This document shows, piece by piece, positions 3-39,480 of a stretch of 64,000 nucleotides of DNA. The notes under the pieces are model-generated. The model saw only the letters and a list, made by a program, of their open reading frames with translations. It did no database searches and was not told the DNA's origin. A program made the position numbers and the translations under genes. Positions within the stretch are counted from its first letter, which is position 1. Each line of letters starts with the position of its first letter. Origin of the DNA: Candidatus Doudnabacteria bacterium (GTDB lineage Bacteria; Patescibacteriota; Doudnabacteria; UBA920); the NCBI GenBank assembly GCA_963788395.1, contig CAWBGV010000028.1, forward strand, positions 18,102-82,101, in the 5' to 3' direction.

Positions 3-412
3 ATGGAAAAAATGATTGACGATAATATGAGTGCTCAGGCTGAAACAGTAGTCGGACCTTCGGTCAAGATTCAAGGGGATTTAAATTCTGAAGGAAATAT
101 TAGAATCGAAGGCCAGGTTACGGGCAAAGTCGAATACGTCCCAAGGGGTTTATGTTAACCAAGGAGCAAAAATTGCCGCCGATATTATTGCTGGAAACGC
201 GGTTGTGGGGAGAGGTGCTGGGTAATTTTAAAATCAACGGCCATTTGGTCTTACAGAGTACGGCCAAAATTACGGGCGATATTGCCTGCGCGATTTTGCG
301 GGTGGAAGACGGCGCTCAGTTTAGCGGCAAATGCGTCATGAACGGTAAAACTCCCACCGTGACTTCGGCGAACAAAAAGCCGGTCAATGAAGAAATAATC
401 GAAGAAGAGTAG
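3..412 (+). CDS. bactofilin-family cytoskeletal protein, reading frame interrupted twice
   Basis: Three frames join into a typical bactofilin beta-helix: VGPSVKIQGDLNSEGNIRIEGQVTG / QGVYVNQGAKIAADIIAGNAVVG / EVLGNFKINGHLVLQSTAKITGDIACAILRVEDGAQFSGKCVM. The shifts lie near 125-140 and at the G-run 207-210. Confidence 0.6.
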
Positions 413-501
413 TTTTAAACTCATAACGAGTAATTGATAACTGATAACTTACAGTTGTCAGTTATAGTTATGAGTTATTAATTATCAGTTGTAGCACCCT
501 C

Positions 502-1572: not shown

Positions 1573-3500
1573 ATGAATCTTTCTAGCCTGTCTTCTGAAC
1601 TCAATATGTCAGTCCAAGAGCTTCGCGCCAAGTCTCGCGAGAAGGGTTTTTTCATTTCGCCTCGGGCCAATAAGATTGATAATTTTTTAGCCAACCAGAT
1701 AAAAGATGCCTTTACTCCAAAAAAAGCAGTAGTGGCAACAGCGGTTGCCGCCGAGCCGAAAAAGATCAAACTGCCTTCTTTCATAAAGGTTCGGGATTTT
1801 GCCGCTTTGTTACAGTTACCGGTAGTCAATGTGATCAAGGAGTTTATTAAAAATGGCATTATGGCCACCATCAATGAAGAGGTGGATTTTGAAACGGCCA
1901 GCATTGTGGCCACTGACTTGGGTTTTGAGGTTGAAAACGAAGCTGACACAAGCCAAACCGAGTATGGTTTAGGTTTTTTGCAGGAAGTTTTAAAAGCCGA
2001 AAAAGAAGAAAATTTAAAACCCCGCGCGCCGATTGTGGCTATTATGGGTCATGTTGACCACGGAAAAACCACCTTACTCGATACCATTCGGAAGACAAAA
2101 GTGGTTGAAGGCGAATCGGGGGTATTACTCAACACATTGGTGCTTACCAAGCCAAAAAGAACGGTAAAACAATTACTTTTTTAGATACGCCCGGTCATGA
2201 AGCTTTTTCCGAAATGCGCGCCCGCGGCGCCAACGTTACCGACATAATCGTTTTGGTAGTTGCCGCCGATGATGGCGTGCGCCCGCAAACCGTAGAAGTG
2301 ATTAATCGGGCCAAATTTACTAATACACCGTTGATCGTGGCTATTAATAAAGTCGATAAACCGGACGCTAATATTATGCGGGTTAAGCAGGAACTGGCCG
2401 GCCAGGGTGTGTTAACGGAAGAATGGGGTGGTAAAGTTATAGCGGTGGAAATTTCGGCTAAACAAAATAAAGGCATAGATAGCCTGTTGGAAATGATATT
2501 GCTGACGGCAGAACTGGAAAATTTTCGCGCGAACCCTAACGGCAAAACAATAGGAACGATTATCGAATCAAAAATCAGCCAGGGCAAAGGCTCTACGGCT
2601 ACAGTGATTGTCCAAAACGGCCACTTAAAAGTTGGTGATATTATAGTTGCCGGTGCGGCTTTTGGCCGGGTACGCAGCCTGGAAGACGAAACTGGCCGTA
2701 AACTGAAAGAAGCCGGGCCATCGATGCCGGCGCAAATTTCTGGATTGTCGGAAGTTGCCCAGGCCGGAGACATCTTGCAGACTGTAGCGACCCTGGATGA
2801 AGCTAAACAAATTGCCTCGACCATTAAACGCAAGAACCGGAGCCATCATCTTTCCAGCAAGCAATCCTTGCAGGGCGATGTAGAGAACAAAACGCTTAAT
2901 TTAATTTTAAAAACGGACGTAGCCGGATCTTTGGAAGCTATCAAGCAATCTATTGCGAAATTAAAAAACGACGAAGTGCGGATTAATATTTTAAGTGAAG
3001 GCGTTGGCGAAGTTAACGAATCGGATGTGTTACTGGCAGCTAACTCCAAAGCCAGTATTCTCAATTTTCACAGCAAAGTGAATCCCAAAGCCGTGAACCT
3101 GGCCAAGCAAAAGCAAGTAATGATAGATTCTTATGACGTAATCTATGAGCTGATTGAAGACGTAACCAGCGCGGTGATTAAAATGTTTACGCCGGAACTG
3201 GAAAAGCATTCTTTTGGTAAAGCTAAAGTTTTGGCAATTTTCCGAACCGAAAAACTGCAAATGATTATTGGCGGACGCACCGAAGAAGGCGAAATCCGCA
3301 AGAATGGCCAAATTGCCATTTGGCGCGAAGACGCCGAACTTGGCCGCGGTGAAATTACCGAACTCCAACAGAACAAATCCACGGCCAAAGCAGTCGCGGC
3401 CGGCAATGAATTCGGCATGAAAATTAAGACGCAGGTTAAAATCAAAGAAGGCGACGTGCTGGAGAGTTTTGAAGAAAAGATTAAACAAAAGACATTGTAG
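1573..3500 (+). CDS. infB: translation initiation factor IF-2, one apparent frameshift
   Basis: [12 protein letters not shown] (G1), then after the shift [11 protein letters not shown].../[20 protein letters not shown], and IF-2 C-terminal domains. ORFs 1573-2184 and 2214-3500 join if one G is added to the G5 run at 2118-2122. Confidence 0.9.
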
Positions 3501-3536
3501 CCTAAGGGCGGACACGCGAATTATGCAGATAAAATC

Positions 3537-3569
3537 AAGCTCTAGAGAATATACCCTCTAGAGCTTTTT
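3537..3569 (+). terminator. rho-independent terminator after infB
   Basis: aagctctagag / ctctagagctt stem followed by a T-run. Confidence 0.7.
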
Positions 3570-3690
3570 AATTAGGTAGTTCGCCCACCTGCCTCGCTGG
3601 CAAGTCACGTTTAGGGGCAGAGTTATGACACTATTGATGAAAATGGGTATTTAGATTATACTATTGAGTTGTATCCGTTATAATAACTAT

Positions 3691-4047
3691 ATGAAACCCG
3701 TAAAAAAAGATACTAATCGTATTTCTAAGGTTAATTCTTTAATCGAGCATGGACTGGGGCCGGTTTTGCATGAGGAACTGGAGGGGCAAAACGGGCTGGT
3801 CACCATTACTAAGGTAGAAACCAGCCGCGACATGAAGTGGGCCAAGGTTTGGATCTCTATTTTGGGCGGCGATGATGACAAAATTTTAAAATTTATCAAT
3901 GCCCATATTTATGAAATCCAAGGCGGTTTAAACAAAAATTTTAAAACTAAGATAATACCGCGCCTACAGTTCTTTTTAGACACCGGCCCACGATATGCCC
4001 AGCATATCGAGGAATTGGTGAAGAAAGTGCATGAGGAAGAATCGTAA
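3691..4047 (+). CDS. rbfA: ribosome-binding factor A
   Basis: RbfA pattern: KVNSLIEHGLGPVL...ITKVETSRDMKWAKVWISILG...IPRLQFFLDTG. The ATG at 3691 is preferred over the TTG at 3664. Confidence 0.85.
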   Translation: MKPVKKDTNRISKVNSLIEHGLGPVLHEELEGQNGLVTITKVETSRDMKWAKVWISILGGDDDKILKFINAHIYEIQGGLNKNFKTKIIPRLQFFLDTGPRYAQHIEELVKKVHEEES

Positions 4048-4156
4048 TTCGTTTATTGGCGGCGCGGCGCGTAACGGTAAATGTGTAACGGCCGAAAGAC
4101 GTAAAACGAACAACAATACGCGCAGCGCTGCCAAATACCTCAAAACGCGATATATT

Positions 4157-5122
4157 ATGGATAATTTAATTCAAGAATTTAACACAGCTAATTCGTTCAT
4201 TACTAAAGCTCAGCGCATTCTCCTGACCATGCACGAACGCATGGATGGGGACGACGGTGGAAGTCTTTTGGCGGTGGGGCGGCAGTTGGAGACAATGGGG
4301 AAGCAAGTGACTCGAGCCATTAAACGCGGCGTGCCTCCCAGTCTGGCCTTTTTGCCGGATAGTAAAAAGATTCAGGACGATATTACTTCATTAAATTTTG
4401 ATCTTTTAATTATGTTTGGTTGTTCCGTGAAAGAACGCTGCGGCAGCGAGAGTATTGTCCATTTGGCCATTCCGACGATCAACATTGACCATCACCCCGA
4501 CAATACCCATTATGGGCAGGTGAACGTAGTAGATCCTTCTAAATCCTCGGTGGCGGAATTGATATACGATTTTTTTGTTTGGAACAATTGGCGCATTACC
4601 AAAGATATTGCCACTTGTTTGCTGACAGGAATCATTACTGACACAGGATCATTTAAACACAGCAATACCCAAACTTCCACGCTCAAGGCCGCGGCAGAGC
4701 TGATGTATAAAGGCGCGCTGGTAGATAAAATTATCCGGAATACTTATAAGAATAAAAATATTAACAGTTTAAAAGCCTGGGGCAGGGCGTTTGAAAATTC
4801 TTATTACGACGAGAAGCGTAAAATTGTTTATTCGGTAATTACCGACCGCGACCTGCGCGAAATCGGGGAGCTTCCGCAAGCCGCTTTCGACGGAGTGGCG
4901 GAAATATTAAATACCGTTCCGGAAGCCAAGTTTGCCATGTTTTTACGTCAAGATGGCAACGTAATTAAAGGCAGCCTGCGCAGCGGCAATGAAGGTATAA
5001 AAAATGTGGATGTTTCCAAAATCGCCCACCTGTTCGGCGGCGGCGGCCATAAGCAAGCTGCCGGGTTTTCGGTAGTGGGGAAATTAAGTAAAGATGAACG
5101 CGGGAAATGGAAAGTGACATAA
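4157..5122 (+). CDS. DHH-family phosphoesterase (NrnA-like oligoribonuclease/pAp phosphatase)
   Basis: Motifs DGDDGGS, NIDHHPDN, and the DHHA1 motif GGGGHKQAAGF. The ATG at 4157 (MDNLIQEF) avoids the implausible basic N-terminal extension that overlaps rbfA. Confidence 0.8.
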   Translation: MDNLIQEFNTANSFITKAQRILLTMHERMDGDDGGSLLAVGRQLETMGKQVTRAIKRGVPPSLAFLPDSKKIQDDITSLNFDLLIMFGCSVKERCGSESIVHLAIPTINIDHHPDNTHYGQVNVVDPSKSSVAELIYDFFVWNNWRITKDIATCLLTGIITDTGSFKHSNTQTSTLKAAAELMYKGALVDKIIRNTYKNKNINSLKAWGRAFENSYYDEKRKIVYSVITDRDLREIGELPQAAFDGVAEILNTVPEAKFAMFLRQDGNVIKGSLRSGNEGIKNVDVSKIAHLFGGGGHKQAAGFSVVGKLSKDERGKWKVT

Positions 5123-6794: not shown

Positions 6795-7517
6795 TTAATC
6801 CCGGCGACCGCCTTCTTGCTCATCTAAATTGGGGGAGCGCCGCGGAATATTGGAATCTATGTGCCCAAACGAAAATTCGTCTTCCGTCGGCGAATAATCT
6901 GGCGAGGTATTTGCTTCCTCTCTTTCCAGGTCCGCCAATTTTGCTTCGTCAGTTGCCGCAGGGCGTCTGGCTGTGAACTGCCAATTGAAGCGGTTTTCTA
7001 AAACCTTAACCTCATTACCTTTTTGCAAATACCAGCTTATAAATTTAGTCCATTGAGGTTTGTCTTTTGGCAATTCCAGCAGATTAAAATCTTTAATATT
7101 ATTATCGCGCAGATATTGTCCAAGCGGTTTTAATTCTTCTTCGTTCAGTATGTAGTAAAGCTGTTTTTGAAATTCTATAACAATTTTTCTTAAGATAGCA
7201 ATATGGGCAGAGTCTTCATAACCGGCAGATTTAAAATAACCTTCCATAAATTTGTCACCCCAAGCGCCAAGATCGGAAGGGCGTCTGAGTAAATGCTGTT
7301 TAAAATAAGATCTCGCAAAATTGGCCGCAAGACCAACTGTAGTCGGCGCAACTTGTCCATATTTATTTTGGACTTCGTTCATAACCTCGGAAACCATAGC
7401 TGGCAAAAGGTCGACTATACGCGCTTCAACCTGCTGCTGCTTTGTGTCCTCCGAATCCCGTTCATATTGATTTTCACGTTCCATAGCTTTATGCGTCTTT
7501 AATTGTTCATGTACCAA
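6795..7517 (-). CDS. hypothetical protein
   Basis: 240-aa ORF with no motif I recognise. Confidence 0.5.
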   Translation of the reverse strand: MVHEQLKTHKAMERENQYERDSEDTKQQQVEARIVDLLPAMVSEVMNEVQNKYGQVAPTTVGLAANFARSYFKQHLLRRPSDLGAWGDKFMEGYFKSAGYEDSAHIAILRKIVIEFQKQLYYILNEEELKPLGQYLRDNNIKDFNLLELPKDKPQWTKFISWYLQKGNEVKVLENRFNWQFTARRPAATDEAKLADLEREEANTSPDYSPTEDEFSFGHIDSNIPRRSPNLDEQEGGRRD

Positions 7518-7678
7518 CTAAGTACTTACCTAACCAAAGTATAACAAAAACACACTTGCTAGTTAATAGAAGTGTTGTTATCAGCTATGGAACCAGGATT
7601 GGGCGGAGGTGGTCGGGAGTTATGGATATGAGGTAAAGCTGCTGGATAGGTTCTTGATGAAAGTATGAAGCTAATACA

Positions 7679-7981
7679 TTACTGAGCGGAGGAAATAAGG
7701 TTTTGAACATTTAGTACATCACTGATGAAGATCTCGTTTTTAGTAGTATTGCTTGAAATATCAATGACTCTGATTTTGCCTTGGTAGTATTTAATATATC
7801 CCGTTATGGTCCCAAGCGGCCCGTCGCCATCTGAAGGCAATAAGATATAAGCCGGTTCAGGCTGGCTAGGAATCCAATTCTCAATTACATTGAGATTTTG
7901 GTCCAAATTAATTACTGTCTGATAGTCTTCTAAAGAATGGTCTTGAGGAGGAGACACTAAAAATGGCCAAGTTAGAACCAT
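7679..7981 (-). CDS. hypothetical protein
   Basis: 100-aa ORF with no recognisable motif. Confidence 0.4.
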   Translation of the reverse strand: MVLTWPFLVSPPQDHSLEDYQTVINLDQNLNVIENWIPSQPEPAYILLPSDGDGPLGTITGYIKYYQGKIRVIDISSNTTKNEIFISDVLNVQNLISSAQ

Positions 7982-8132
7982 CGCTTCTTGCTTCAGATAA
8001 AACGCAAAACCCCCTTTCGGGGGGTGTAAATTTGCGTTGGAGCGGGATAATGGCTGGGGTTAGAACTTATTGGCAGGATAAATCAAATTGGTTTTATATT
8101 CCGGAGCTGTCATTGGAAACTGTAAAAATCAA

Positions 8133-8873: not shown

Positions 8874-9962
8874 ATGGCTAAATTTGATAAAAATACGCCC
8901 TATAACCAGTTGCCTCATTTACCTCCAAAAAGGGAACTTGAAACTAAGCAAGTTCTTAAAAAGACCATATCCGCCAATAAAGAGTTGGCTAATATGGCTG
9001 GTTTTTGTAAACAGCTACCTAATGAAGCAATTTTTTACCACTCCGCTTTTTTAATTAAAGAGGCAAAGGATAGCTCGGAAATAGAAAACATCGTAACTAC
9101 AAATGATGAACTATATCAAGCACTTGCTTCTGGTAAAATCACAACAGACCCAAATATAAGAGAAGTTCTGCATTACATAGATGCACTTTGGGAAGGCTTA
9201 AAAGAAATGAAAAATACAAAAGTATTAACTGTCAGGACTTTCGTAAAAATTGTCAATACAATAAAAGAAAATAATCAAGGTATCAGGATTCATCCAGGGA
9301 CTAAAATACAAAATGACAAAACTAAAGAAATTATTTATACACCCCCGGAGGGTAAAGACGTTATTGAGAACAAACTTAGAAACTTAGAAGAGTATATAAA
9401 TAAAGACGATGATGTTGACCCGCTTATAAAGTTAGCAGTTCTTCATTACCAATTTGAAGCCATACACCCATTCTCGGATGGTAATGGGAGAACTGGCAGA
9501 ATAATAAATATACTCTATTTAGTTTTTAGGAATCTCCTAGAGCATCCCATGCTATTTTTGAGCAAATACATCATTAATAATAAAAATGATTATTATACAA
9601 AATTAAGAAATGTAACAGAACATGATAGATGGGAGGATTGGATTTTATATATACTACAAGGAGTTGAAGAAACATCAATATACACAAAGAAAAAAGTGTC
9701 TGAGATTCTTGACCTAATGAGAGCAACCAAAGAAAGAATAAGAAAAGAAGCTCCTGGAATTTATTCTAAAGATTTATTAGAGGTATTGTTTCGGCAACCG
9801 TATATCAAAGTTCGTTTCTTAGAAGAAGCTGGTATTGTAAAGAGATTAACGGCAGGAAAATATCTAAATAAATTAACAACTATGGGGATATTAAAAAAGG
9901 TAAAAGTTGGAAAAGAAAATCTATATGTTAACCTTGAGTTCTACAAAATATTGAAAAAATAA
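8874..9962 (+). CDS. Fic family protein
   Basis: Fic motif HPFSDGNGRTGR, plus a C-terminal winged-helix-like tail. Confidence 0.9.
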   Translation: MAKFDKNTPYNQLPHLPPKRELETKQVLKKTISANKELANMAGFCKQLPNEAIFYHSAFLIKEAKDSSEIENIVTTNDELYQALASGKITTDPNIREVLHYIDALWEGLKEMKNTKVLTVRTFVKIVNTIKENNQGIRIHPGTKIQNDKTKEIIYTPPEGKDVIENKLRNLEEYINKDDDVDPLIKLAVLHYQFEAIHPFSDGNGRTGRIINILYLVFRNLLEHPMLFLSKYIINNKNDYYTKLRNVTEHDRWEDWILYILQGVEETSIYTKKKVSEILDLMRATKERIRKEAPGIYSKDLLEVLFRQPYIKVRFLEEAGIVKRLTAGKYLNKLTTMGILKKVKVGKENLYVNLEFYKILKK

Positions 9963-10059
9963 AACCGCTACTTGCACCAAAGTCAAAATTAGCAAAGCCC
10001 AAGTTAAAGATACCAACTTTTTAGAATATTTATCGCTACTAACATTAAATTTGTTTATT

Positions 10060-10227
10060 TCATTTACTAGCTGCTCTGAGGCTGTGGCGTTTTTTTTCTA
10101 TAGCTCTACGAGTTAGTTCTGCCATAACAAAATTGCTAACTGAACTGTTTATATCCGCATTCTCTAATTTAGCCTCCAGTTCTTCTTGGCTGTATTCTTT
10201 TATTGGTTTTCCGAGACCAAAAGGCAT
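10060..10227 (-). CDS. small hypothetical protein (55 aa)
   Basis: ATG at 10227, MPFGLGKPIKEYSQEELEAKLENADINSS... It is below the ORF-track cutoff and lies downstream of Fic on the opposite strand. Confidence 0.3.
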   Translation of the reverse strand: MPFGLGKPIKEYSQEELEAKLENADINSSVSNFVMAELTRRAIEKKRHSLRAASK

Positions 10228-10438
10228 AAGTTTTTGATTATAATGCTAAATAATTATAAGATTATATAATTTTGACTTAAGGCCTTATTGAGCGTATAGT
10301 ACATATAGATAGTGATTATGCGGAAATAAAAAGTGTGCGGCAACATGCCCTATATTCCGCCGGGAGGTCAACCATGCTAAATACCACAGGCAATTCTTAT
10401 AGTTAGAATTGTCTTTTTTATATGCGCGGTTTAATAAT

Positions 10439-11353
10439 ATGAAAGAAAAACGCCTTAACCAATCAGTAGATGTAGCTAAAAGCTACCGCAGCCTAGTCGA
10501 AAACATCAGCGACTATGCTATTTTTATGTTGGATACTCAAGGTCAAGTTTTAAGTTGGGACCAGGGAGCCAAGCTCCAATTAGGATATGGTAGAGAAGAA
10601 ATTGTTGGTAAGTCTTTCTCTCTGTTTTATACTCACAAAGATGTTAAGGCGGGGGTTCCGGCCTTCGATTTGTCAGAAGCCAAGTTGTTTGGACGTCACA
10701 TAGATGAAAGGCACTATGTGAAAAAGGATGGCAGTGAATATTGGGGAACGGCTGTTTTGACCTCCAGTGTAGATAAAAAAGGGTCTCACTATGGCTATTC
10801 TATGATTATGCGAGACGTGACAGAAGAAAAGAATCTCCAGCAGATTATTATGCACCGTTCCACTCACGATTATTTGACCGGTTTGCCCAACCGCAGAATT
10901 TTTGAACAAAATTTACTGGAAGCCATAGACCAGAACAAGAAAGGCAGCTTGGTAGCCATCCTCTTTTTAGACTTTAATAATTTTAAGCACGTGAACGATC
11001 AACAGGGTCATGGTTTTGGGGACTTGGTGTTGGTGCAAATTGCGACCAGGCTTTTAAAGGGTATTCGTATTACCGATATGGTTGCCCGTTTAGGTGGTGA
11101 TGAATTTGTAATTCTAACATCCGGTTTTACCGACGTACAGGATATTAAAAGTTTTGCTAGTAAGATTTTAAGACTTTTTCAGGTTCCTGTTAAAATTGGT
11201 AAAAAGTCGGTAAAAACAACGGTCAGTATTGGCGTGGCTATCTATCCTACTGACGGCAAAAAAGCTTCGCAGTTGTTGCACTATTCCGACATGGCGCTTT
11301 ACGAGGCAAAGAAAAATGGCGGTAATCAGTTTTGGCTTTATTCTCAGGATTAA
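10439..11353 (+). CDS. PAS domain-containing diguanylate cyclase (GGDEF)
   Basis: PAS region (NISDYAIFMLDTQGQVLSWDQGA...), then DYLTGLPNRR and RLGGDEFVIL. Confidence 0.9.
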   Translation: MKEKRLNQSVDVAKSYRSLVENISDYAIFMLDTQGQVLSWDQGAKLQLGYGREEIVGKSFSLFYTHKDVKAGVPAFDLSEAKLFGRHIDERHYVKKDGSEYWGTAVLTSSVDKKGSHYGYSMIMRDVTEEKNLQQIIMHRSTHDYLTGLPNRRIFEQNLLEAIDQNKKGSLVAILFLDFNNFKHVNDQQGHGFGDLVLVQIATRLLKGIRITDMVARLGGDEFVILTSGFTDVQDIKSFASKILRLFQVPVKIGKKSVKTTVSIGVAIYPTDGKKASQLLHYSDMALYEAKKNGGNQFWLYSQD

Positions 11354-11379
11354 GTTAACGAACGTGGAAAGGAAGAATT

Positions 11380-11670
11380 ATGCAGTACGATTTTGATGAT
11401 TTTTTAAATACTATAAAGTATCTTGATCAGGAAGATATTCTAAAGACTACTCATCAGCAGCAGCTGTCTTTGAACAGGTTTTACCCCAGGTATACAAAGG
11501 AAGAAAGGCTGGATTTGCAAAACAGTCTCCAAGGTTTTTTATTTTGGATAGAAACTAAGCAGCATCCGCCCGGCATGAGCCACGCCAATTTTGAAAAACT
11601 CAAACCCATCTGCAAAAATCTCATAAAAAAACACCAACTGGAACCAGCAGCCCTGGAACTGTTTACCTAA
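11380..11670 (+). CDS. hypothetical protein
   Basis: 96-aa ORF, 27 nt after the GGDEF gene, preceded by aaggaag. Confidence 0.45.
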   Translation: MQYDFDDFLNTIKYLDQEDILKTTHQQQLSLNRFYPRYTKEERLDLQNSLQGFLFWIETKQHPPGMSHANFEKLKPICKNLIKKHQLEPAALELFT

Positions 11671-16804: not shown

Positions 16805-16833
16805 TTGACAAATAGCCTTATTTATAGTAAATT
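16805..16833 (+). promoter_or_regulatory. sigma70-type promoter
   Basis: TTGACA, 17 nt, TAAATT, about 45 nt upstream of the SD aaaggagg of the 16878 gene. Confidence 0.5.
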
Positions 16834-16877: not shown

Positions 16878-17747
16878 ATGAGAGAAGGAATTCTTGACCA
16901 GCTTCCAAAGACGCTTACCAAAGAAACGGTCGTGCTCGTCGTCGGGCCTGACCAATACCCCGGACTCAACCATGTCAAAGCCCTCATTCAGGATTTGAAC
17001 CGCGAAGAGAAGTGGATCAGAGATGAATTTCGCACTGACGTGTCCGATTCGCAGGTTTCCAATAAGGTGGGTATCATACTCACTTTGGTTGGCACCAAAC
17101 ACGGCTCACTTAGTAATGTCCGACGAGCGGCAAAAAACCTCAATGCCTGCTGTCCAAATCAGGCACTGACTATCGCCGAAACGAAGGATATCCTAACGCG
17201 GCTCGCTGACCTCCGTAAAGGAGTCGCTCCGCCGCAGACCCTACCCGGGGCGCATAACGGGAACGGCAGCCACCCTGTGCCCGGCGCGGGCGAAGGGCAA
17301 CGGCTTGACCGCCTACGGACTTCTGCTCAAGAGTCGAGCAAGGAGTTTATCGCCGTTGTAACCCAACCCCTACCACAACCCGATTCGCCGACCACTGCCG
17401 CACAGATGACCGCGTCAGCAGAGACGGGAGAGCCGGAGGAGTTGGATGCTGCATTGACAGCCCTCGACACATTCGGCTCCGCTTTTGCTGAAGCCCAGGA
17501 TGCAGTCCTTATGGTCGGTGACCGGCTCAAAGCCGTAATGGCCGAACGGGACCAATTCCAAAGGCAACTGGCAACAAAGGATGGTGAAATCGCCGACCTG
17601 CGTAGCCAACTCGGCAAGACGGCAGACCTCACCAAAGAGAATGGAATTCTCATCGCCAAGAACAAGGAACTTCAAACAGAAGTCCAACGCCTTCAGCAGG
17701 CTTTCGACAACCTCGAGAGCCTGATCAAAGGGGCGCGGAAAAAGTAG
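16878..17747 (+). CDS. hypothetical protein with C-terminal coiled coil
   Basis: 289-aa ORF with a strong SD and a Pro/Ala-rich linker, followed by a heptad-like C-terminus. Confidence 0.6.
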   Translation: MREGILDQLPKTLTKETVVLVVGPDQYPGLNHVKALIQDLNREEKWIRDEFRTDVSDSQVSNKVGIILTLVGTKHGSLSNVRRAAKNLNACCPNQALTIAETKDILTRLADLRKGVAPPQTLPGAHNGNGSHPVPGAGEGQRLDRLRTSAQESSKEFIAVVTQPLPQPDSPTTAAQMTASAETGEPEELDAALTALDTFGSAFAEAQDAVLMVGDRLKAVMAERDQFQRQLATKDGEIADLRSQLGKTADLTKENGILIAKNKELQTEVQRLQQAFDNLESLIKGARKK

Positions 17748-17766: not shown

Positions 17767-17800
17767 AGCCACGGATCGCAGTTTGATCCGTGGCTTTTTT
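17767..17800 (+). terminator. rho-independent terminator
   Basis: agccacggatc / gatccgtggct stem followed by TTTTTT. Confidence 0.75.
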
Positions 17801-17811
17801 AATTCCATTAG

Positions 17812-19195
17812 TATTTTCCAGTCAAGAGAATATACTGAAAGTAAACGCCGCACCGTGAGTTGTTAAGGATTAATGGTGTTTAATGGTTTTCCAGATTTCT
17901 CTCTTAGCCTCGTTCATCTGTTTGGCAAATTCGTTGTCTGAAAGCGCGAGGGAAATATCGTCCAGCTCTTTTTGCGTCCGTCCTGGGGCAAGATATTGTG
18001 TCCAGTTTTCCAATGTTTTTAATTTTTCATAAGGCGTGAGGTAAATTTCGTATTTTTTCTTCTGCTTGCCTTGGTTATCGGTGTATGTGGTAGGGTAGGC
18101 GCACTGTCGATGGAAATTCAGGTAGGTATTAAAGTGGCTTGTATACCATTGGTTAATAGCCGGAGCAAACTTTTTAGGAATGTAGCTGTAACCATTCCAC
18201 TTGCGGATAATCTTGTTCTTGGTTTCGGCCAGCCCGTTGTCGTTGCTATGTCTGCTTCTGGATTTGGTTTGTTTGACTATTAAGCGTTCCAGCAAGTCCG
18301 CTACCTGATAGTTAATGTATTCGCTGCCATTGTCGGAATGGAAGTTTAAAATTTTAAAGGGAAATTCGGTTAAGGCTTTCTCCAGGGCCGGTATTAAAAA
18401 GTATTCGCTGATACCCTCCACGCAAACTACGATTTCCCATTGGGTGACTTCATCAACCAGGTTAATATGGTATACGCCTTTCTGCTTGTCCAAATCCCCC
18501 TGATGCACGGAATCTACCCGTAAATAGCCTGGTTTGCCGTAGGGCTGGGGTTTCCTGCGTTCCCCGATGGGAACCGTAACGGGATTGGTTTTAGTGTAAG
18601 TCAAAGCTTTACCGATATACCTGTCAGTACCACGCAGATTGTAAATGTGGCCTAAAGAAATATTTTGCAGGCGGACAAACTTTTCATCCTTAAACAGATT
18701 AAACATCCGCTTAAAAATGTTTTGTAAAGCCTGCCCAGTCGGCCGTCTGTGGAGATTGTCGGTTTCAGCCAAAGTTTCAATGTCGGCTTCGGTGTAAACT
18801 TTGGTAAAAATATTCCTTTTGCCCCAATCGGAAGACACGGTTAATTTTAATTGTCCCTTATCACGCTTCCTGCCCAACAGTTTTTTAATCTGAATCTTGG
18901 AATAGCCGGTAATCTTCGCCAGGTAGTTAATGGTAATTCCTTTTTCCTTTTTTCCCAGCTTAAAGTATGTAATCTGGTTAGTTTGTTTGGCTATCCAGTC
19001 ATAGACCTCCTGTTTACCCTGGGCCTGGAGCTGTAAGTGGCTGCTGCCCTTTAAAAAATCCTCCATTTGATTTATGCTAACTGCACATGAGTCGTTCATG
19101 GTGATGGTCATAACTCACAGTGTAGCGACTCGTGTTTTTAATGCCCAGCCTGTTCTATGTCCGAATTTCAGTATCTTTCCCATTGGAAACAGGGA
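17812..19195 (-). mobile_element. insertion sequence with rve (DDE) transposase
   Basis: Imperfect terminal inverted repeats (...gagaatatactgaaa at the left, tttcagtatctttccc... at the right) around a single transposase ORF. The element is AT-richer than the GC-rich DNA on both sides. Confidence 0.6.
17870..19111 (-). CDS. DDE transposase, integrase core (rve) domain
   Basis: N-terminal HTH, then the triad context VDSVHQGD ... FHSDNGSEY ... NGLAETKN. Confidence 0.8.
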   Translation of the reverse strand: MTITMNDSCAVSINQMEDFLKGSSHLQLQAQGKQEVYDWIAKQTNQITYFKLGKKEKGITINYLAKITGYSKIQIKKLLGRKRDKGQLKLTVSSDWGKRNIFTKVYTEADIETLAETDNLHRRPTGQALQNIFKRMFNLFKDEKFVRLQNISLGHIYNLRGTDRYIGKALTYTKTNPVTVPIGERRKPQPYGKPGYLRVDSVHQGDLDKQKGVYHINLVDEVTQWEIVVCVEGISEYFLIPALEKALTEFPFKILNFHSDNGSEYINYQVADLLERLIVKQTKSRSRHSNDNGLAETKNKIIRKWNGYSYIPKKFAPAINQWYTSHFNTYLNFHRQCAYPTTYTDNQGKQKKKYEIYLTPYEKLKTLENWTQYLAPGRTQKELDDISLALSDNEFAKQMNEAKREIWKTIKHH

Positions 19196-19234
19196 GAGCC
19201 CTCAGTATCCTTTTGTATTGTAAAATACTGGGCT

Positions 19235-19263
19235 TTGACATTTCCCTTTATATCCTGTATAAT
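19235..19263 (+). promoter_or_regulatory. consensus sigma70 promoter
   Basis: TTGACA (19235-19240), 17 nt, TATAAT (19258-19263), upstream of the 19345-21565 gene pair. Confidence 0.65.
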
Positions 19264-19344
19264 TTTAAGTTCCTCAGGCCTACCCAGACGTATCCTGAAG
19301 ACAAAACTTGAGATTGCAAATTTCCAATTTAATAGGAGGCTTAA

Positions 19345-20034
19345 ATGGCTTCAGAGCTCACACAAAGCCAAACGGAAGTTTTTGAACAAGCCAAACAATC
19401 TATAATTGGTGAGCTCGATGAGGAAACCCTTAATTGGGATTTCTCAAAGATGCTCGATCAGTTAAAGACAACAATCGCCAACAAAAGTCCTACGGAAAGC
19501 GGGGCAACTCGCAATGCTGTTCGTTTCTTTTGCCGCCACTACCTGAACATGAAAGGCGAAGCATTCAACGAAACTCGGCGCTGGCTGACTGGCGAAAAGT
19601 CCATGTCATCTGCAGAGATTCAGCTCGTGCTACGCACATTGAAAGCTCTCAACGACGGGACTTTTGTAGAACCAGATTCCAAGCCATCGGCGTCCGAAAC
19701 CGAATACGACTCGTGCAGGGAGTTGGCGGCCGCAGTTATACCAACTGTCGGACAGCCAATCACCCAGCCAAAACCAGGCGTAGTTCGCAAGCTCATCGAC
19801 CATACGATTTCGCTGTTCAACTCGCTTGTCGGTTTAATTGTCGAATCTGGTGTTCAGCCTTCCGACGTGTTTGACGGAGACCGGATGCAGATTCGCGGTG
19901 CGTTGCAGAAAATTTGTGACGCATTTGGTATCAACGTGGTTTTTCCCGAGCCCGATGCGGCTCGTAACCAGCCAGTGACGAGAGACGACCTCTCTAGTTT
20001 AGGGCTAACTCTTACAGGAAAGAAAAGGAGATAG
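19345..20034 (+). CDS. hypothetical protein, upstream partner of the GHKL ATPase
   Basis: 229-aa ORF with SD taggagg. Its stop lies 4 nt before the next start. Confidence 0.6.
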   Translation: MASELTQSQTEVFEQAKQSIIGELDEETLNWDFSKMLDQLKTTIANKSPTESGATRNAVRFFCRHYLNMKGEAFNETRRWLTGEKSMSSAEIQLVLRTLKALNDGTFVEPDSKPSASETEYDSCRELAAAVIPTVGQPITQPKPGVVRKLIDHTISLFNSLVGLIVESGVQPSDVFDGDRMQIRGALQKICDAFGINVVFPEPDAARNQPVTRDDLSSLGLTLTGKKRR

Positions 20035-20038
20035 AGTT

Positions 20039-21565
20039 ATGAGATTCCAGATGAAAGTTACCGCCTTCCACATGGTCGACAACCTCGCCACCGGTCTCTA
20101 CGAGAGTGTGGGTCAGCGCCTGATGGAGCTGATTCGCAATTCTCTGGTTGCCAGCATGGCCGATCCGAACGTTTGGGAACCCAAGCGGGCGAAGATCGAG
20201 ATGTCGATTATTTCCAACCACCCGCTTTCACCCAGCAAGAATCCAGCACTCATCATACTGGACCATGGCTGCGGCTTGACTGATCCGGCGCTCGAACGCT
20301 ACTTTAACTGGCTCGGCACTCCCTTGAGTCAGCTTCGCCAGCACAGTAACGGTTCCTATGGCGGTGCTTCACAAAAGGGCATCGGCCGTCTGGCAGCACT
20401 CGCTCTAAACGAGAACTGCCTCCATGACGACGTGATGACCCGCATCAAGCACGGATACTACCTGCTTACGCGGACGTCCAAGACCGGTAATGTTCGTTTC
20501 GTGCCGGTCATTCCCGAAAAGGCGGAGACGGAACAGGGTTTCGATACCGAACGTTTCATTTCCTCAACCTCGACGGAACTCGGCCCGCTTAAGAATCTGC
20601 AAGGTTCGTTTACGGCAGTGGTCATTCCGACTCCGGTTTTCAAGAGCCACGCCGAGATTTACGAGGCGATCAAATGGCTCCTCCCGCGCGAACAGGATAA
20701 GATGTTCGATCTTCAGATCGGCGGCAAGGCATTCGGGCCACCCCCGCTGGAAAAGGAGATTAATCTTTCCTTACAAGACGGCCGTTACCGTGCCCGCCTC
20801 GGTGTCGGCAATACCGACAGCGACGGCGTTTGGCTCTGCGATGATGAGACAGGCTTTCGGGTCGCGAGCTGCCAGAAGCTTGGCAGACTCCTCCCTGATC
20901 CGCTTTGGTATCCCGACCTCGTCGGAGATATCTTTGCGCCAAACCTTCTCCGCCATCAAAACACCGCCCGTAGCACTCTTGCCAAGGAGTTTACTCGCAA
21001 GGGCAATAAAGAGTGGCAGCGTCTGCTGATGTTCCTCATTCGGGACGTCTCACCGCAGGCCAAGCAACTCATTGAACGGGATTCCATCCGCGGCAACGCC
21101 GCCGAAACCCTCGATGAACTGGCAGAACTGTTCAACGATCGTTTTGGCCCACCTGACGAATCGGATCACGGCGATGGCCCGCACAAAAAGCGGGAACCCA
21201 AAACCCCTGAACCCGGCGGCAATGGAGAGGGTGGTAATGGTGACGGAGACGGCGGTGAAAAGGAGACCGATCCTGAACGTCGCTATCGGCGTCACATCGC
21301 TATCAAGGTGCGAGACGAGGTCTTCTACCTCTATCGCGGCCAGACCCTGCATCCGTATGTCTTTGCCCAAGTCAGTCCCAACAATCCGAAGATGATCTTC
21401 GTGAACGTGCGGGGCGGATATAAGGCGCTACCGGATCAAAAGGCGGCCCGTCGTGAGCACTGTTTCGTCCAAGTGCTTATGGCAATCGGCACGAGCAAAT
21501 TTCCCTCTGATCGTTACCAGGCAATGCTGTTTGCCAACGAGGTCAGGGGCGAGTTTCTCAAGTAG
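20039..21565 (+). CDS. GHKL-type (HATPase_c_3-like) ATPase domain protein
   Basis: Bergerat-fold motifs in the correct order: ELIRNSLVAS (N-box), ILDHGCGLT (DxGxG), ASQKGIGRLAALAL (G2). A Gly/Asp/Glu-rich linker and an unknown C-terminal domain follow. Confidence 0.6.
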   Translation: MRFQMKVTAFHMVDNLATGLYESVGQRLMELIRNSLVASMADPNVWEPKRAKIEMSIISNHPLSPSKNPALIILDHGCGLTDPALERYFNWLGTPLSQLRQHSNGSYGGASQKGIGRLAALALNENCLHDDVMTRIKHGYYLLTRTSKTGNVRFVPVIPEKAETEQGFDTERFISSTSTELGPLKNLQGSFTAVVIPTPVFKSHAEIYEAIKWLLPREQDKMFDLQIGGKAFGPPPLEKEINLSLQDGRYRARLGVGNTDSDGVWLCDDETGFRVASCQKLGRLLPDPLWYPDLVGDIFAPNLLRHQNTARSTLAKEFTRKGNKEWQRLLMFLIRDVSPQAKQLIERDSIRGNAAETLDELAELFNDRFGPPDESDHGDGPHKKREPKTPEPGGNGEGGNGDGDGGEKETDPERRYRRHIAIKVRDEVFYLYRGQTLHPYVFAQVSPNNPKMIFVNVRGGYKALPDQKAARREHCFVQVLMAIGTSKFPSDRYQAMLFANEVRGEFLK

Positions 21566-21589: not shown

Positions 21590-21626
21590 AACCCCACGAT
21601 CATTTACTGGTCGTGGGGTTATTTTT
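21590..21626. terminator. bidirectional terminator
   Basis: aaccccacga / tcgtggggtt stem followed by a T-run, between convergent genes. Confidence 0.65.
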
Positions 21627-22379
21627 ATCGCCGAAGTTATTGAAGTAGCGGAAAGGCTTGCCGATGAGGTCGGACGGTGGATCGGCACTGACCAGCTCAA
21701 CGGCCTGCCGATAAGCAAGCAGTGTGCCAATCTCCCGATCGTTTTCAGCTAGCAAGTCAATAATACTGTTGATGATGCCGCCTTCGCTCGCCAGCTCGGT
21801 TTCCAAACGAGCCTTTTCCATCTTTGCCGTCTGCTCATCCTCGCAAGCTCCGAGGCTTAAGAGTTGGCTGGTCATGGAAAGCTGTTCGGTTTTCTTGTCC
21901 CGTTCATTCTCCAAGTGCTCTTGGATATTTCTGACCGCATCGCTCCATTGCTCACGTCGCCGGAGTTCTGCGCAGATTTGATCGAGCGTTGTATTCAGCC
22001 GGACTTGCGGATTAGGTTGTCCGTGTTCAAGTTGCTCTGCCAACTCAGCTACTTGCGCTTCTGCGCCTGCAACTAAATCAGCAGCTGCACTATCGAGTTG
22101 CTCAACTGTGTTGAGCAGTTCGTCGACAGCCTTTGACAACTCCTTGTTGTCTTGACCGAGACCAATAGCCCTAATGAGACTCACTATGGTTTCGGCAAGC
22201 AACCGTTTAGATTCGGTATCAGCGGTTCCGAGCTGTAGGTGTGTTGCAAGCTCGTCTTCGGTATATTGAACCGCGCGGGAGATCTCCCGCGGATTGCGCA
22301 GTTCAACAACCTTTTGGGTGGTTTCAACTGGTGTTGGCGGTTGGCCCTTTTGCGGTTCCATCACTATCCTCCTATTCAA
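21600..22379 (-). CDS. hypothetical coiled-coil protein
   Basis: 259-aa ORF, highly helical, Glu/Leu/Ala-rich. Confidence 0.55.
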   Translation of the reverse strand: MNRRIVMEPQKGQPPTPVETTQKVVELRNPREISRAVQYTEDELATHLQLGTADTESKRLLAETIVSLIRAIGLGQDNKELSKAVDELLNTVEQLDSAAADLVAGAEAQVAELAEQLEHGQPNPQVRLNTTLDQICAELRRREQWSDAVRNIQEHLENERDKKTEQLSMTSQLLSLGACEDEQTAKMEKARLETELASEGGIINSIIDLLAENDREIGTLLAYRQAVELVSADPPSDLIGKPFRYFNNFGDKNNPTTSK

Positions 22380-22443
22380 GTTTTCATATTATTATATGGG
22401 TTTTTCGCATTGTTGTCAACCTTTCGGTATTTGCCATTTTGGC

Positions 22444-22472
22444 TTGACAAAAGCGGTTTTTGACCTTATAAT
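22444..22472 (+). promoter_or_regulatory. consensus sigma70 promoter
   Basis: TTGACA (22444-22449), 17 nt, TATAAT (22467-22472). Confidence 0.65.
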
Positions 22473-22536: not shown

Positions 22537-23905
22537 ATGGAGGCTACTAAAGAGCAGGTCATTCGACTATTCCTGACGTTCCTGTCGCGGTATGTCCCCA
22601 TCGGGCAGGCGCAACTGGCAACTTTTAGGTGGACGAGGATTGGAGGCTAAAATTTGGTCGGAACTGCAAGTTCCTTCCGAGCATGGCTGGCTGATCGAAC
22701 GCAACAGGGAACGAGCGAGTAATCTCATCATCAATCATCGCTACGGCACCCACAACCAACTCCGAACTTTCGATCGTATCCTAGCCGGATACGGCGAAGA
22801 TCGAGAATTCATCGACGCGTTCCATTTGGATTTATGCGGAACGCTCTGCAACACCGCCATTGAAAACTTTTCGCCTGTATTACCGCTCCGTGCTCAAAAG
22901 CACAGGCCGGTGTTTGGCGATTACAGTCTGACCAGCGTCGCAATTTAACGTTGGAACAGTGGCCAAGTTTTCGTGCGCGCGCAAAACGCTTGTTCGGTTC
23001 ACAGGCAAATGACCTTCACGATCAAATCGTGGCACAACAGCGATGCGTGCCTGTCAGGCAGACTCGCCGGCATTTTTCAAGCCGTTTGATTCAGCCAAGG
23101 CCGCCAAGCGGGAATTCGGCTTGCTCATTGAGTTGACCGAATTATTACGCATGCAGCAGCTACCATGGATACCAGTGGCTGTTGAACGTTATATCTACGT
23201 CAGCCGCTACAAACGCCGACCCTTCCGGATGCGGACGTATTTTTTCCGTTTCGGACAGCAAAATGCAAGCTCCTCGGAATTCGCCTTTGCGCAAGCCTGG
23301 GTGAACAGTAAAACGTTCTTTGCTAATGATGAAGCATTCACTGAAGTCAAAATGCCAGTCGTTAGTATCACAGTTCCACCAACTACGAAAGGAATCGTTA
23401 CGCATATGGAACAGACAACGCCGAAACTCATCGATTTGTCAGGATACGTGGCCGTGCCAAAACCGGAATACGACCAACTCCTGGCCGACAGCCAACAGCT
23501 CCGCGCCATCCGCTCCGCACTCGAAGGTGCGATGGTATCCAATACCCACCCCGCCCAGCCCTCTTCGACTTCCCCGCCTTCGGTTGAGCCGCAAGGGAAT
23601 AAGGCTGGCCGAGTGCGAAAGTCCTGGGACAGCTTCACCGCCTGCGAGCAGATCGACTTCACCATCAAGGCTCTGGAGTTGCGGCTGGCCTTAGGCGGTA
23701 AGTTCACCGGCACAGAAGGCACCGCCGCGTGGGAGAAGCTGCTCAAAGGCACGTTTGGATACTACAATCCGAAGCTCGGTCGCAGCACACGTGCGACCTT
23801 GGCTCGCACCAGCGGCGAGAAGTTCCGCCCCGAGTTCGAGGAGCGGATCCGCAAAGCCTGCGGAGACAAGGCCAGCCTTACCTCGACCGCCTCGCCAAGC
23901 TGTAA
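22537..23905 (+). CDS. hypothetical protein, several apparent frameshifts
   Basis: SD aaggagg plus ATG at 22537. The pieces 22537-22650, 22592-22948, 22951-23136 and 23043-23984 read as one protein (…IDAFHLDLCGTL…GRCLAITVADQRRN…). The 3' end is uncertain because one frame reads through the terminator. Confidence 0.45.
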
Positions 23906-23931
23906 CGCCAGCAGTAGCAAATCATTCGTAG

Positions 23932-23961
23932 CAGGAGTTCCCAGTGGACTCCTGTTTTTTT
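23932..23961 (+). terminator. rho-independent terminator (right edge of GC-rich island)
   Basis: caggagt / actcctg stem followed by T7. Confidence 0.75.
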
Positions 23962-28260: not shown

Positions 28261-29825
28261 ATGCAAAATAAATCTAACGCCAGTAAGTATATTGAATACT
28301 GCCGCAAGTCCTCTGACTCGGAAGACCGGCAGGTGCAATCAATTCCGGACCAACTGAAAGAATTGATGCCTTTAAGAATTGCGCGGCAGGCTAATGTTAT
28401 AAAATCTTATGGTGAATCGCAGTCAGCTAAAAAGCCCGGCCGCCCTTACTTTAACGAAATGATTAAAATGGTTGAGGACGGTAAAGCTGATGGCATCATC
28501 TGCTGGAAAATAAACCGCCTTGCCCGTAACCCGATTGACGGCGGGAAAATCCAGTGGCTGCTGCAAACCGGCAAACTCAAATCCATCCTTACGCCCGGCA
28601 AAGAATACTTACCGACTGACAATGTTTTAATGATGGCTGTTGAGCTTGGTATGGCTAACCAGTTTATATTAGACCTAAGCAAAGACGTTACTCGCGGCAT
28701 GAACACTAAGGTGCAAAAAGGCTGGCGGCCGGTTAAAGCGCCGCTTGGTTATTTAAACGATCCGGTTGGGTTGCGCGGCGAGAAAAGAATTTTTAAAGAT
28801 CCGGAACGGTTTGAGTTGGTGCAGAAAATGTGGAAGCTAATGCTTAGCGGTAATTATACTATCCGCAGGCTTCGAGACGTTATTACCAACGAGTGGGGTT
28901 TAAGAAGCAGGCAGAATAACAACACGTTAAGCTTAGGCGGCCTATACCGAATTTTTACTAACTCCTTTTACTACGGGGAGTTTACTTATCACGGCGAAGT
29001 CTTTCAAGGCAAACACGAGCCTATGAATTAGTAAAATGGAATTTGACCGAGTGCAACAGATTTTAGGCAGAGCTGGTAAGCCCAGGCCAAAATATAAGCG
29101 GCTACCATTTAACGGGCTTATTCAGTGCGGCGAATGCGGCGCCATGATTACCAGTGACGAGAAACTTAAAACCATGAAAGCCACAGGCGAAATCAAATCT
29201 TATATTTACCATCACTGCACTAAAAAGAAAAAGATACTGCCTGTTACCAAAGACCAATTAAGCACGAGGAGCTGGTTAAGCAGGTTAATGCTTATTTAAA
29301 TCTCATAACCATCCCCGAAGAATTTTTGCACTGGACCCCGTGAGGTGCTTAAATCAAACAACGAGCAGGAAGAACACGACCGCACCCTTATGTTGGAAAA
29401 CCATCGCAAGAATTACGACTCATGCCTTAAGCGCATCGATAATTTAATTAACCTGTATATTTCGGGCGATAATGCGGATAAGGAGCTTTTAACCGAGGAT
29501 GAGTTTAAAAGTCAGAAAAACGGGTTAGTGGCTGAGAAAGCGCAAATAGAGTCACAGATGCGGCAGGTTGGCGAGAGGTTAACGACTGGATGGACTTAAC
29601 TGAGAAAACGTTTGAATTTGCGACTTATGCTAAATCTTTTTTTGAAAAAGCGGATTTATGAGCAGAAGACTGACATTCTGCGCGCCTTTGGTCAGAACTT
29701 TGTGTTACAAGGCGGAAAACTTGATATTACCTTGGCTAAACCGTTCTTGGTTTTGAAAAATGGGCTAACGGAGGCATCCATTCAAATGGCTATGTCAGAA
29801 CCGGCAAAACTCTTGAGACCTCATC
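28261..29825 (+). CDS. large serine recombinase, fragmented by at least 3 frameshifts
   Basis: Resolvase N-domain (YCRKSSDSEDRQVQSIPDQ, ICWKINRLARN), recombinase domain (GWRPVKAPLGY), zinc ribbon (CGECGAMITSDE…HHCTKKK), coiled coil, and C-terminal tail. Pieces: 28261-29031, 29036-29299, 29345-29599, 29612-. The 3' end is uncertain. Confidence 0.8.
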
Positions 29826-29861: not shown

Positions 29862-29935
29862 TGGAGCGGCTAACGGGAATCGAACCCGTGTCCCTTCCTT
29901 GGCAAGGAAGAGTTCTACCATTGAACCATAGCCGC
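29862..29935 (-). tRNA. tRNA-Gly(GCC)
   Basis: Manual cloverleaf: GCGGCTA…TAGCCGC, anticodon loop TTGCCAA, T-loop TTCGATT, encoded CCA. Confidence 0.9.
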
Positions 29936-39404: not shown

Positions 39405-39480
39405 TGGTGGGCGTGCTAGGACTCGAACCTAGGACCAATCGTGTATAAGACGACCGCTCTACCAACTGAGCTACACGCCC
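39405..39480 (-). tRNA. tRNA-Ile(UAU)
   Basis: GGGCGTG TA GCTC AGTTGGTA GAGC G GTCGT CTTATAC ACGAT TGGTC CTAGG TTCGAGT CCTAG CACGCCC A CCA. Positions 34-36 are TAT. Confidence 0.8.

Follow-up and report, generated by a model that had tools for sequence, protein, structure and literature searches.

Which system do a small protein and the GHKL-type ATPase encoded directly behind it form in the genome of a Candidatus Doudnabacteria bacterium? The pair lies in a stretch of 64,000 nucleotides (nt) of contig CAWBGV010000028.1 (assembly GCA_963788395.1, positions 18,102 to 82,101 of the forward strand), called the window from here on, and a first-pass annotation had described it as a two-gene operon of the kind that recurs in prokaryotic conflict systems. 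The two-gene operon did not hold as the complete unit: genes B (229 amino acids, aa) and C (508 aa) form one of the transcription units in a cassette of five genes, A / B-C / D (reverse) / E, in which C is a GHKL ATPase by profile and model and E is predicted to have the fold of a methyltransferase. By analogy with known operons, this cassette is tentatively read as an undescribed methylation-linked conflict system.

The homologs of C fell into 58 clusters, and an alignment of 49 sequences was used for the motifs and for the AlphaFold2 (AF2) model. The three Bergerat motifs that had been read from the sequence stand in order (ELIRNSLVAS at residues 30-39, ILDHGCGLT at 73-81 and ASQKGIGRLAALAL at 110-123), and their key residues turned out to be invariant or at least 90% conserved in the 49 homologs. 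E30 and N34 of motif I (E-x-x-x-N, the catalytic Glu and the Mg-binding Asn) are invariant, as are D75 and R117, and G77, G79, Q112, K113, G114 and G116 are conserved at ≥90%. The Pfam model HATPase_c_3, to which the first-pass annotation had likened C, matched the single sequence below threshold (E=0.0058, 17.1 bits against a cutoff of 25 bits), because the domain of C is too divergent for the curated cutoff; some members of the family have precomputed PF13589 matches. A single-sequence search of PDB sequences with C gave noise only. The family profile matched the N-terminal ATPase domains of TRAP1, HSP90 and HtpG (TRAP1 E=2.5e-5), with E30 and N34 of C aligned on ELISNASDA of TRAP1 and D75 on DTGIGMT.

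The AF2 model of C reached a mean predicted local distance difference test score (pLDDT) of 87.4 and a predicted template modelling score (pTM) of 0.82. Foldseek found 202 PDB entries that match it at E≤1e-3, and the best 50 are without exception GHKL ATPases with a transducer domain. The matches comprise HtpG, TRAP1, GRP94, HSP90, SMCHD1 and MORC2/3/4 (E from 3e-13 to about 1e-9), in alignments of about 380-450 columns that take in the middle domains of TRAP1, SMCHD1 and MORC; a fold search of BFVD with C returned generic GHKL folds only. The predicted transducer domain of C carries a loop, N-x-[SA]-R-x-x-L, in which R311 is invariant and may correspond to the catalytic-loop arginine of HSP90; in the GHKL plus S5 transducer subgroup (HSP90, MutL, type II topoisomerases, MORC) a conserved basic residue, Arg or Lys, reaches the active site from this domain. 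The GHKL assignment rests on the family profile and the structure model and not on the single-sequence Pfam match. Taken with the motifs, these matches indicate that C is a GHKL (Bergerat) plus transducer ATPase of the HSP90/MORC/SMCHD1 type, with its predicted ATP-binding residues intact.

The remainder of C also agreed with what had been proposed. Its Gly/Asp/Glu/Pro-rich linker (residues 375-411) is predicted to be disordered, with pLDDT <50 at 375-386 and 392-411, and the C-terminus, which had been put at about 90 conserved-looking residues of a novel type, was modelled as a confident small domain of ~97 aa (residues 412-508, pLDDT ~90 or above) with four strands and two helices. A profile of this domain alone found no relatives in Pfam or in PDB sequences, and no relationship to nucleases was detected; the domain is therefore novel at the sequence level. 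Conservation within it is highest at N456, P465, E473 and H474, together with a consensus Cys that completes an 'REHC' motif.

A word-indexed search placed 91 clusters in the E family, and when 1.84 billion proteins were searched exhaustively with a hidden Markov model (HMM), 248 representatives passed E≤1e-3; the latter search did not spill over into the large methyltransferase families, the family being closed. Twelve E members had no Pfam match at E≤1, none was found in NCBIfam, PADLOC or PDB sequences, and fused domains sought in long family members were not found. The structure was modelled on the intact Zambryskibacteria ortholog P0073 (AF2 pLDDT 87.7), and Foldseek gave 38 PDB matches at E≤1e-3, essentially all of them S-adenosylmethionine (SAM) methyltransferases (probability 1.0, E from 4e-5): Trm1, KsgA, mtTFB, RsmH-like and cap methyltransferases and many small-molecule methyltransferases. 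The model has the Rossmann-like seven-strand fold of class-I SAM methyltransferases. A Gly-rich loop (motif I), G31-G-x-G34-x-E36, follows strand 1 (27-30), with G31, G32, G34 and E36 invariant; the acidic E54 follows strand 2 (50-53) and N73 strand 3; and the motif H96-L-D98-L-C100-G101 follows strand 4 (94-98), with H96 and D98 invariant and C100 and G101 conserved. This last motif resembles, in register, the 'D-P-F-G' motif IV of Trm1, and with the conserved Cys the predicted chemistry could be either amino-methylation or C5-methylation. Behind the core come a long basic beta-hairpin (R218, Y221, S223, R231-M-R-T-Y235) and then C-terminal helical domains. With motifs at the canonical positions, E is predicted to represent a new class-I SAM-methyltransferase-fold family.

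Protein B, whose homologs form 14 clusters, is conserved in two blocks, at ~1-105 and ~145-220, and has in addition a variable linker and a basic tail. It has no recognisable domain, and neither the sequence nor the profile found relatives in PDB or Pfam. The C-terminal block is common to the B-position proteins of distant variants of the cassette (hmmsearch E=3.5e-13 to that of locus L023, hhalign E=0.004 to that of L021). In the variant with 61% guanine plus cytosine (GC), L024, the B-position protein (3295-4761) has 488 aa and an XRE-type helix-turn-helix (HTH) in two stretches (HTH_31, 30.2 bits against a 27-bit cutoff), which hints that B-position proteins can be DNA-binding specificity subunits. 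For B of the window an HTH found no support, as hhalign against the L024, L021 and L022 proteins aligned the C-terminal block of B only, with no HTH.

The two remaining proteins, A and D, appear from their sequences to be rapidly diverging coiled-coil proteins. A has an N-terminal domain of ~110 aa, a low-complexity linker and a C-terminal coiled coil; it is the least conserved member of the cassette, and its profile matches only coiled coils in PDB and NCBIfam. D, encoded on the opposite strand, is a helical, coiled-coil protein with generic coiled-coil matches only, without domain matches and with a blank profile search of PDB sequences.

The conservation of the arrangement was followed in loci gathered from contigs that encode homologs of C and B and by a scan of GTDB species genomes. 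The neighbourhood check suggested earlier came out in favour of co-conservation: B-C is linked to E in 15 independent loci and in the window, A and D are the usual companions, and the small partner stands directly 5′ of the ATPase gene, as had been noted for the pair. E adjoins B-C in every locus with enough flank, even where orientation or accessory genes change. In the remote variants (L007, L019, L021 from Uhrbacteria, L022, L023 and the 61%-GC L024) both the orientation and the accessory genes differ; the C-family GHKL gene is always beside E (hmmsearch E from 1e-108 to 1e-166), and a B-position gene lies directly 5′ of it except in L019, where no B-like gene was identified. As the C-family and E genes stay linked, with a B-position gene, across the remote variants, the invariant core of the cassette is B + C + E.

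Further features of the comparison concern the rates and the coupling of the genes. The stop of B and the start of C overlap as ATGA in 6/10 cassettes, so that B is apparently often translationally coupled to C. Mean pairwise identity over eight canonical cassettes falls from C (57%) and E (46%) to B (32%), D (30%) and A (18%), a gradient from which we infer a conserved enzymatic core with fast-evolving accessory subunits, a pattern that we regard as typical of conflict systems. Pairwise identities of C and of the N-terminal domain of E correlate over 14 loci (Mantel r=0.905, p=1e-4). The usual sizes and strands are 265-340 aa (+) for A, 150-233 (+) for B, ~500 (+) for C, 135-253 (-) for D and 437-494 (+) for E. 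Beyond the five genes, the Adlerbacteria cassette (L001) has two small genes of 138 aa and 82 aa 5′ of A (7390-8054), and L017, which lacks A, has a gene resembling the 82-aa one 5′ of B (146-415); these small genes may be optional extra components. In L022 a 628-aa paralog of E lies 3′ of E (9713-11599), with an E-family region (hmmsearch E=5e-20) and coiled-coil-like sequence.

In the window all five genes were identified by tblastn and blastp, and the cassette is organised as four transcription units, A, B-C, D (reverse) and E. The features, with window coordinates, are the following.

16805..16833, forward strand: promoter-like site of gene A, TTGACA-17-TAAATT, 10/12 consensus positions
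16878..17747, forward strand: gene A, 289 aa, orthologous by tblastn/blastp to A of L003, L008, L010, L018 and others
17767..17795, forward strand: terminator-like hairpin 3′ of A, by hairpin prediction
17809..19229, reverse strand: insertion sequence (IS), foreign to the cassette, by its transposase open reading frame (ORF) and terminal inverted repeats
19235..19263, forward strand: promoter of B-C, native, TTGACA-17-TATAAT, 12/12
19345..20034, forward strand: gene B, 229 aa, by its ORF, with the TAG stop ending at 20034
20039..21565, forward strand: gene C, 508 aa, by its ORF, with the ATG at 20039
21590..21620, unstranded: terminator-like hairpin between the convergent C and D, a 13-base-pair (bp) stem followed by a T-run
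21600..22379, reverse strand: gene D, ~253-259 aa, by tblastn orthology (75% identity to D of L003)
22419..22391, reverse strand: promoter of D in the D-E spacer, perfect 12/12 consensus
22444..22472, forward strand: promoter of E in the D-E spacer, perfect 12/12 consensus, divergent from that of D
~22538..23905, forward strand: gene E, predicted SAM-methyltransferase fold, by a tblastn frame path with five frame switches
23930..23956, forward strand: terminator-like hairpin 3′ of E, by hairpin prediction, at the end of the cassette

The promoter, the ribosome-binding sites and the spacing described for B-C were all found where they had been placed: an AGGAGG-type Shine-Dalgarno sequence precedes both starts by 5-8 nt, and a gap of 4 nt separates the stop of B from the start of C. 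B-C, D and E each have a promoter that matches the sigma-70 consensus perfectly (12/12), all three within 3.3 kb. The promoter-like sites in the scan total 8, which is not above the shuffle expectation of 6.5 ± 2.1, and the B-C promoter is credible because near-consensus promoters (≥10/12) recur at the same position of the A-B spacer in 9/9 orthologous cassettes. A site comparable to the A promoter is present 5′ of A, and divergent ≥10/12 promoters are present in the D-E spacer, in most orthologous cassettes; the A-B spacers of L003, L010 and L018 contain an equivalent of the A terminator hairpin, GCCACGGAT...ATCCGTGGC. The layout of the transcription units as a whole is repeated in nine orthologous cassettes. 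Near-perfect promoters at conserved positions suggest strong and independent expression of each unit of the cassette.

The first-pass annotation had missed that the cassette of the window is disrupted. Between the A terminator and the B-C promoter lies the IS (~17809-19229), with imperfect terminal inverted repeats at about 17809-17838 and 19202-19229 and an intact 413-aa transposase ORF of the rve family (DDE integrase core; 17870..19111, minus strand; Pfam rve E=2e-7). Its GC content, 0.426, is that of the host and differs from that of the cassette, which is 0.528. Without it the A-B spacer would measure ~177 nt, against 174 nt in the Doudnabacteria ortholog L003, and since this length matches and the promoter position is conserved, the B-C promoter is native. 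That the promoter is part of the IS was ruled out, because the same position is conserved in IS-free orthologous spacers.

Gene E of the window switches frame near 22626, 22889, 22928, 23070 and 23870, in each case by a change of 1-2 nt at a short homopolymer, and once the frames are corrected no conserved motif is lost and the native stop is kept. The frameshifts were rejected as proof of a pseudogene, as the gene of the essential translation initiation factor IF-2 likewise falls into two ORFs, 1573..2184 and 2214..3500, where a run of G near 2117-2122 has lost 1 nt, and the contig therefore carries indel errors of the long-read type. There are five indels in 1.4 kb of E against none in A, B, C, D, GyrA and HtrA, and the frame switches may represent very recent decay or local assembly error. 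With A parted from B-C by the IS and E frameshifted, the copy in the window is probably impaired. The closest intact-looking relative, on a 523,761-bp contig of a Doudnabacteria metagenome-assembled genome (MAG; L003/L012), also has frameshift-like garbling in C and E. In its deposited C protein (P0013) the alignment is lost at about residues 80-185 (columns ~90-215), and the C-terminus of E is out of frame, which suggests assembly indels in long-read MAGs.

Every taxon-labelled genome with the cassette belongs to the Patescibacteria: Zambryski-, Adler-, Doudna-, Taylor- and Uhrbacteria, Paceibacterota/Parcubacteria and records labelled Saccharibacteria. A single peptide pattern found at least 11 loci among 185,579 GTDB species genomes, which is a lower bound; C had no relatives in IMG/VR, and C and E were absent from 50,697 phage records and 72,556 plasmid records. 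The GC content of the cassette exceeds that of its flanks in 10/10 genomes, by 2-10 points (0.528 against 0.427 in the window), and the flanks differ in each genome, being unrelated housekeeping genes such as those for tRNA synthetases, PGI and GatCAB. In some loci the neighbours are a tyrosine integrase, ParD, NERD, Mrr_cat, PD-(D/E)xK proteins and serine recombinases, and in the window they are the IS, Fic and a fragmented serine recombinase beside a tRNA-Gly gene. This rarity, together with the varied flanks, the GC offset and the mobile-element neighbours, indicates that the cassette is an accessory module that would move between lineages of the Candidate Phyla Radiation (CPR).

Other observations were made around the cassette of the window. 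At 28261-29599 a large serine recombinase (Resolvase and Recombinase domains) is spread over at least three ORFs near the tRNA-Gly gene (29862-29935), and a stretch at ~12-29 kb holds ORFs without Pfam matches; the broken recombinase and the Pfam-blank ORFs suggest a degraded integrated element. This unannotated island is closely preceded by genes for two enzymes, a SoFic-like Fic/DOC adenylyltransferase at 8874..9962 and a diguanylate cyclase of the PAS-GGDEF type at 10409..11353. At 39405-39480 on the minus strand there is a tRNA-Ile gene with the anticodon TAT (UAU). A UAU tRNA-Ile is unusual in bacteria, where AUA is normally decoded by a lysidine-modified CAU tRNA.

The reading that we put forward, tentatively and at a little short of an even chance, is that the cassette is a methylation-coupled, ATP-gated clamp system, acting in conflict and akin to the MORC/paraMORC restriction-modification (R-M) operons. 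C would be a dimeric ATP-gated clamp, as are HSP90, MutL, MORC and type II topoisomerases; its C-terminal domain would keep the two subunits joined, and ATP binding would bring the N-domains together around a client. B would be the adaptor or specificity subunit that targets C, and E would methylate nucleic acid, either marking self or modifying a target. Nucleic acid that is foreign or lacks the mark would then be what the B-C clamp acts on, with A and D as scaffolds. Since none of the proteins is recognisable as a nuclease, the system may block or silence rather than degrade, or its effector may be the conserved N456/E473/H474/C475 site in the C-terminal domain of C.

Several results weigh against this reading. 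Domain and profile searches of the five proteins turned up neither a nuclease nor a helicase nor another effector domain, and no cassette protein matched a PADLOC model. By Foldseek, the nearest folds to E are RNA and small-molecule methyltransferases and not DNA methyltransferases. Most flanks are ordinary housekeeping genes and not defence islands, the correlation of C with E could partly reflect shared vertical descent, and the dimerisation of C, the contact of B with C and the substrate of E are predictions only. The conflict-system suggestion of the first-pass annotation is a plausible candidate reading, for which no effector nuclease was found.

One alternative is a physiological one, an RNA-modification or ribonucleoprotein (RNP)-assembly module, in which E would be an rRNA or tRNA methyltransferase, C an HSP90-like chaperone that would remodel the substrate complex, B a co-chaperone and A and D scaffolds. 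The top structural neighbours of E are RNA methyltransferases (Trm1, KsgA/mtTFB, RsmH, cap methyltransferases), the best matches of C are the HSP90-family chaperones TRAP1, HtpG and GRP94, and the cassettes sit among genes such as those for tRNA synthetases, PGI and GatCAB. We nevertheless consider such a module unlikely, as its distribution is rare and patchy and its position different in each genome, the GC content is offset from the flanks in 10/10 genomes, A, B and D evolve very fast, and the copy in the window is disrupted by an IS and possibly by frameshifts. Moreover, C is without the HSP90 C-terminal dimerisation domain and scores 13.8 against 455 bits with the HtpG model.

To the same degree improbable is a selfish, addiction-type or nucleoid-silencing module of a mobile element: instead of protecting the host, the methyltransferase and the GHKL clamp would serve to maintain or silence their own carrier element, much as MORC and SMCHD1 compact methylated DNA. 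The cassette has strong promoters of its own and behaves like a mobile unit, integrases or recombinases adjoin it in L008, L001 and the window, coiled-coil partners exist, and SMCHD1 and MORC2, which compact chromatin, are among the closest ATPase modules of solved structure. The conserved set, however, is free of genes for recombination, replication or transfer, neither termini nor repeats of the cassette were identified, and the module is absent from the plasmid, phage and IMG/VR collections. That B-C is an autonomous two-gene system with incidental neighbours is very improbable, for even though the pair is tightly coupled and has its own promoter and terminator, E stands beside it in every locus with enough flank and the identity matrices of C and E are strongly correlated.

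The methylation-coupled clamp can be extended to a bolder proposal, which we regard as doubtful: a CPR-specific immune or epigenetic system in which the new-family methyltransferase would mark nucleic acid, and the HSP90/MORC-like GHKL clamp, together with its adaptor and the coiled-coil scaffolds, would silence or keep out invaders that lack the mark, with no canonical nuclease involved. If true, prokaryotes would have an equivalent of the methylation-linked silencing of the MORC/SMCHD1 type, and this in organisms mostly without CRISPR-Cas. The CPR/Patescibacteria are described as having tiny genomes and only rarely CRISPR-Cas, with their resistance to phage and foreign DNA an open question (PMC6509639). 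Being compact, laterally mobile and so far confined to this group, the cassette offers a concrete candidate for nucleic-acid surveillance specific to the CPR. It would add as new families a GHKL clamp, a methyltransferase family and three uncharacterised protein families, and even if it is a housekeeping module, five 'hypothetical' families gain fold-level annotation and an operon context.

The statement that the pair matches no nameable system was confirmed for the cassette as a whole. No model of PADLOC-DB v2.0.0 was matched by A, B, C, D, E or diverse family members, PHROGs and NCBIfam contain no model describing the cassette, and literature searches on GHKL, paraMORC and CPR defence found no description of it. 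Several known systems share some of its parts.

Likenesses exist to phage T4-type rIIA and to BREX and DISARM. The BFVD fold matches of C include rIIA-type 'membrane integrity protector' proteins, and rIIA works with a smaller partner, rIIB, that is encoded beside it. This likeness is at the fold level only (TM score ~0.4, 12-13% identity), and rIIA is a phage-encoded protein of ~720 aa, whereas C has no relatives in phage collections. BREX and DISARM resemble the cassette by analogy only, as multi-gene systems of methylation-dependent exclusion with a methyltransferase, an ATPase and several small proteins whose role is unclear, for which a non-degradative outcome is conceivable; the cassette, in contrast, has no homolog of PglZ, BrxC, BrxL or DrmA/B/C, its ATPase is of the GHKL and not the P-loop type, and the E methyltransferase family is unrelated by sequence.

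The HSP90 family (HtpG, TRAP1, GRP94) provides the best profile and fold matches of C, and the lead-in LY..E...ELxxN is common to both. However, C has ~500 aa against 620-700 aa, its C-terminal domain is unrelated and the dimerisation domain that ends the three-domain N-M-C architecture of HSP90 is missing, no Pfam HSP90 match was obtained and the NCBIfam HtpG model gave 13.8 bits against a cutoff of 455 bits, and the gene stands within an accessory cassette and not as a lone chaperone gene. Because both architecture and model scores fail, C is placed by its sequence outside the HSP90 family. SMCHD1 and the eukaryotic MORC2/3/4 share with C the GHKL plus transducer fold (E~1e-11 to 1e-9) and the association with coiled coils, and these modules are tied to DNA-methylation-linked silencing. 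They differ in that C lacks CW, SMC-hinge and chromatin-reader domains, that the identity is only 11-14% and that the coiled coils of the cassette are the separate proteins A and D. In VcSduA, the GHKL-Shedu protein of Vibrio cholerae, a GHKL and a clamp-like middle domain are proposed to gate a C-terminal effector nuclease (PMC12137116). The order of an N-terminal GHKL ATPase ahead of a C-terminal domain is the same in C, although VcSduA is a single protein with a DUF4263 PD-(D/E)xK nuclease and no linked methyltransferase.

The MORC/paraMORC proteins are GHKL plus S5 ATPases that carry family-specific C-terminal extensions and are encoded, together with DNA methylases, in R-M-like operons (Iyer, Abhiman & Aravind 2008, PMC2292703). 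Their usual partners are a superfamily II (SF-II) helicase and/or an endonuclease (restriction endonuclease (RE)-fold, HNH, Vsr, TIR), and a DNA methylase is frequent (PMC2292703). C likewise has a GHKL domain with intact ATP motifs, a predicted S5-type transducer and a C-terminal extension, and the cassette is sporadic, laterally mobile and linked to a methyltransferase gene. The S5 signature of MORC, GhXhhpXXRhl (PMC2292703), is unmatched in register in C, the nearest segment found by eye being G263-V-W-L-C-D-D-E-T271-G-F-R274, with T at the R position and the Arg three residues later, and for this reason the sequence places C outside MORC sensu stricto. None of the 15 cassette loci has a helicase or nuclease, only the methyltransferase-fold E being linked; E is a predicted new family and not a DNA methylase of the Dam/Dcm type, the partners are coiled-coil proteins and the hosts are Patescibacteria. 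The cassette would thereby extend the GHKL-methyltransferase association of the MORC/paraMORC R-M operons to a version without a helicase or a recognisable nuclease, and it bears on the coupling of MORC-type ATPases to methylation and on the bacterial ancestry of MORC/SMCHD1-like silencing.

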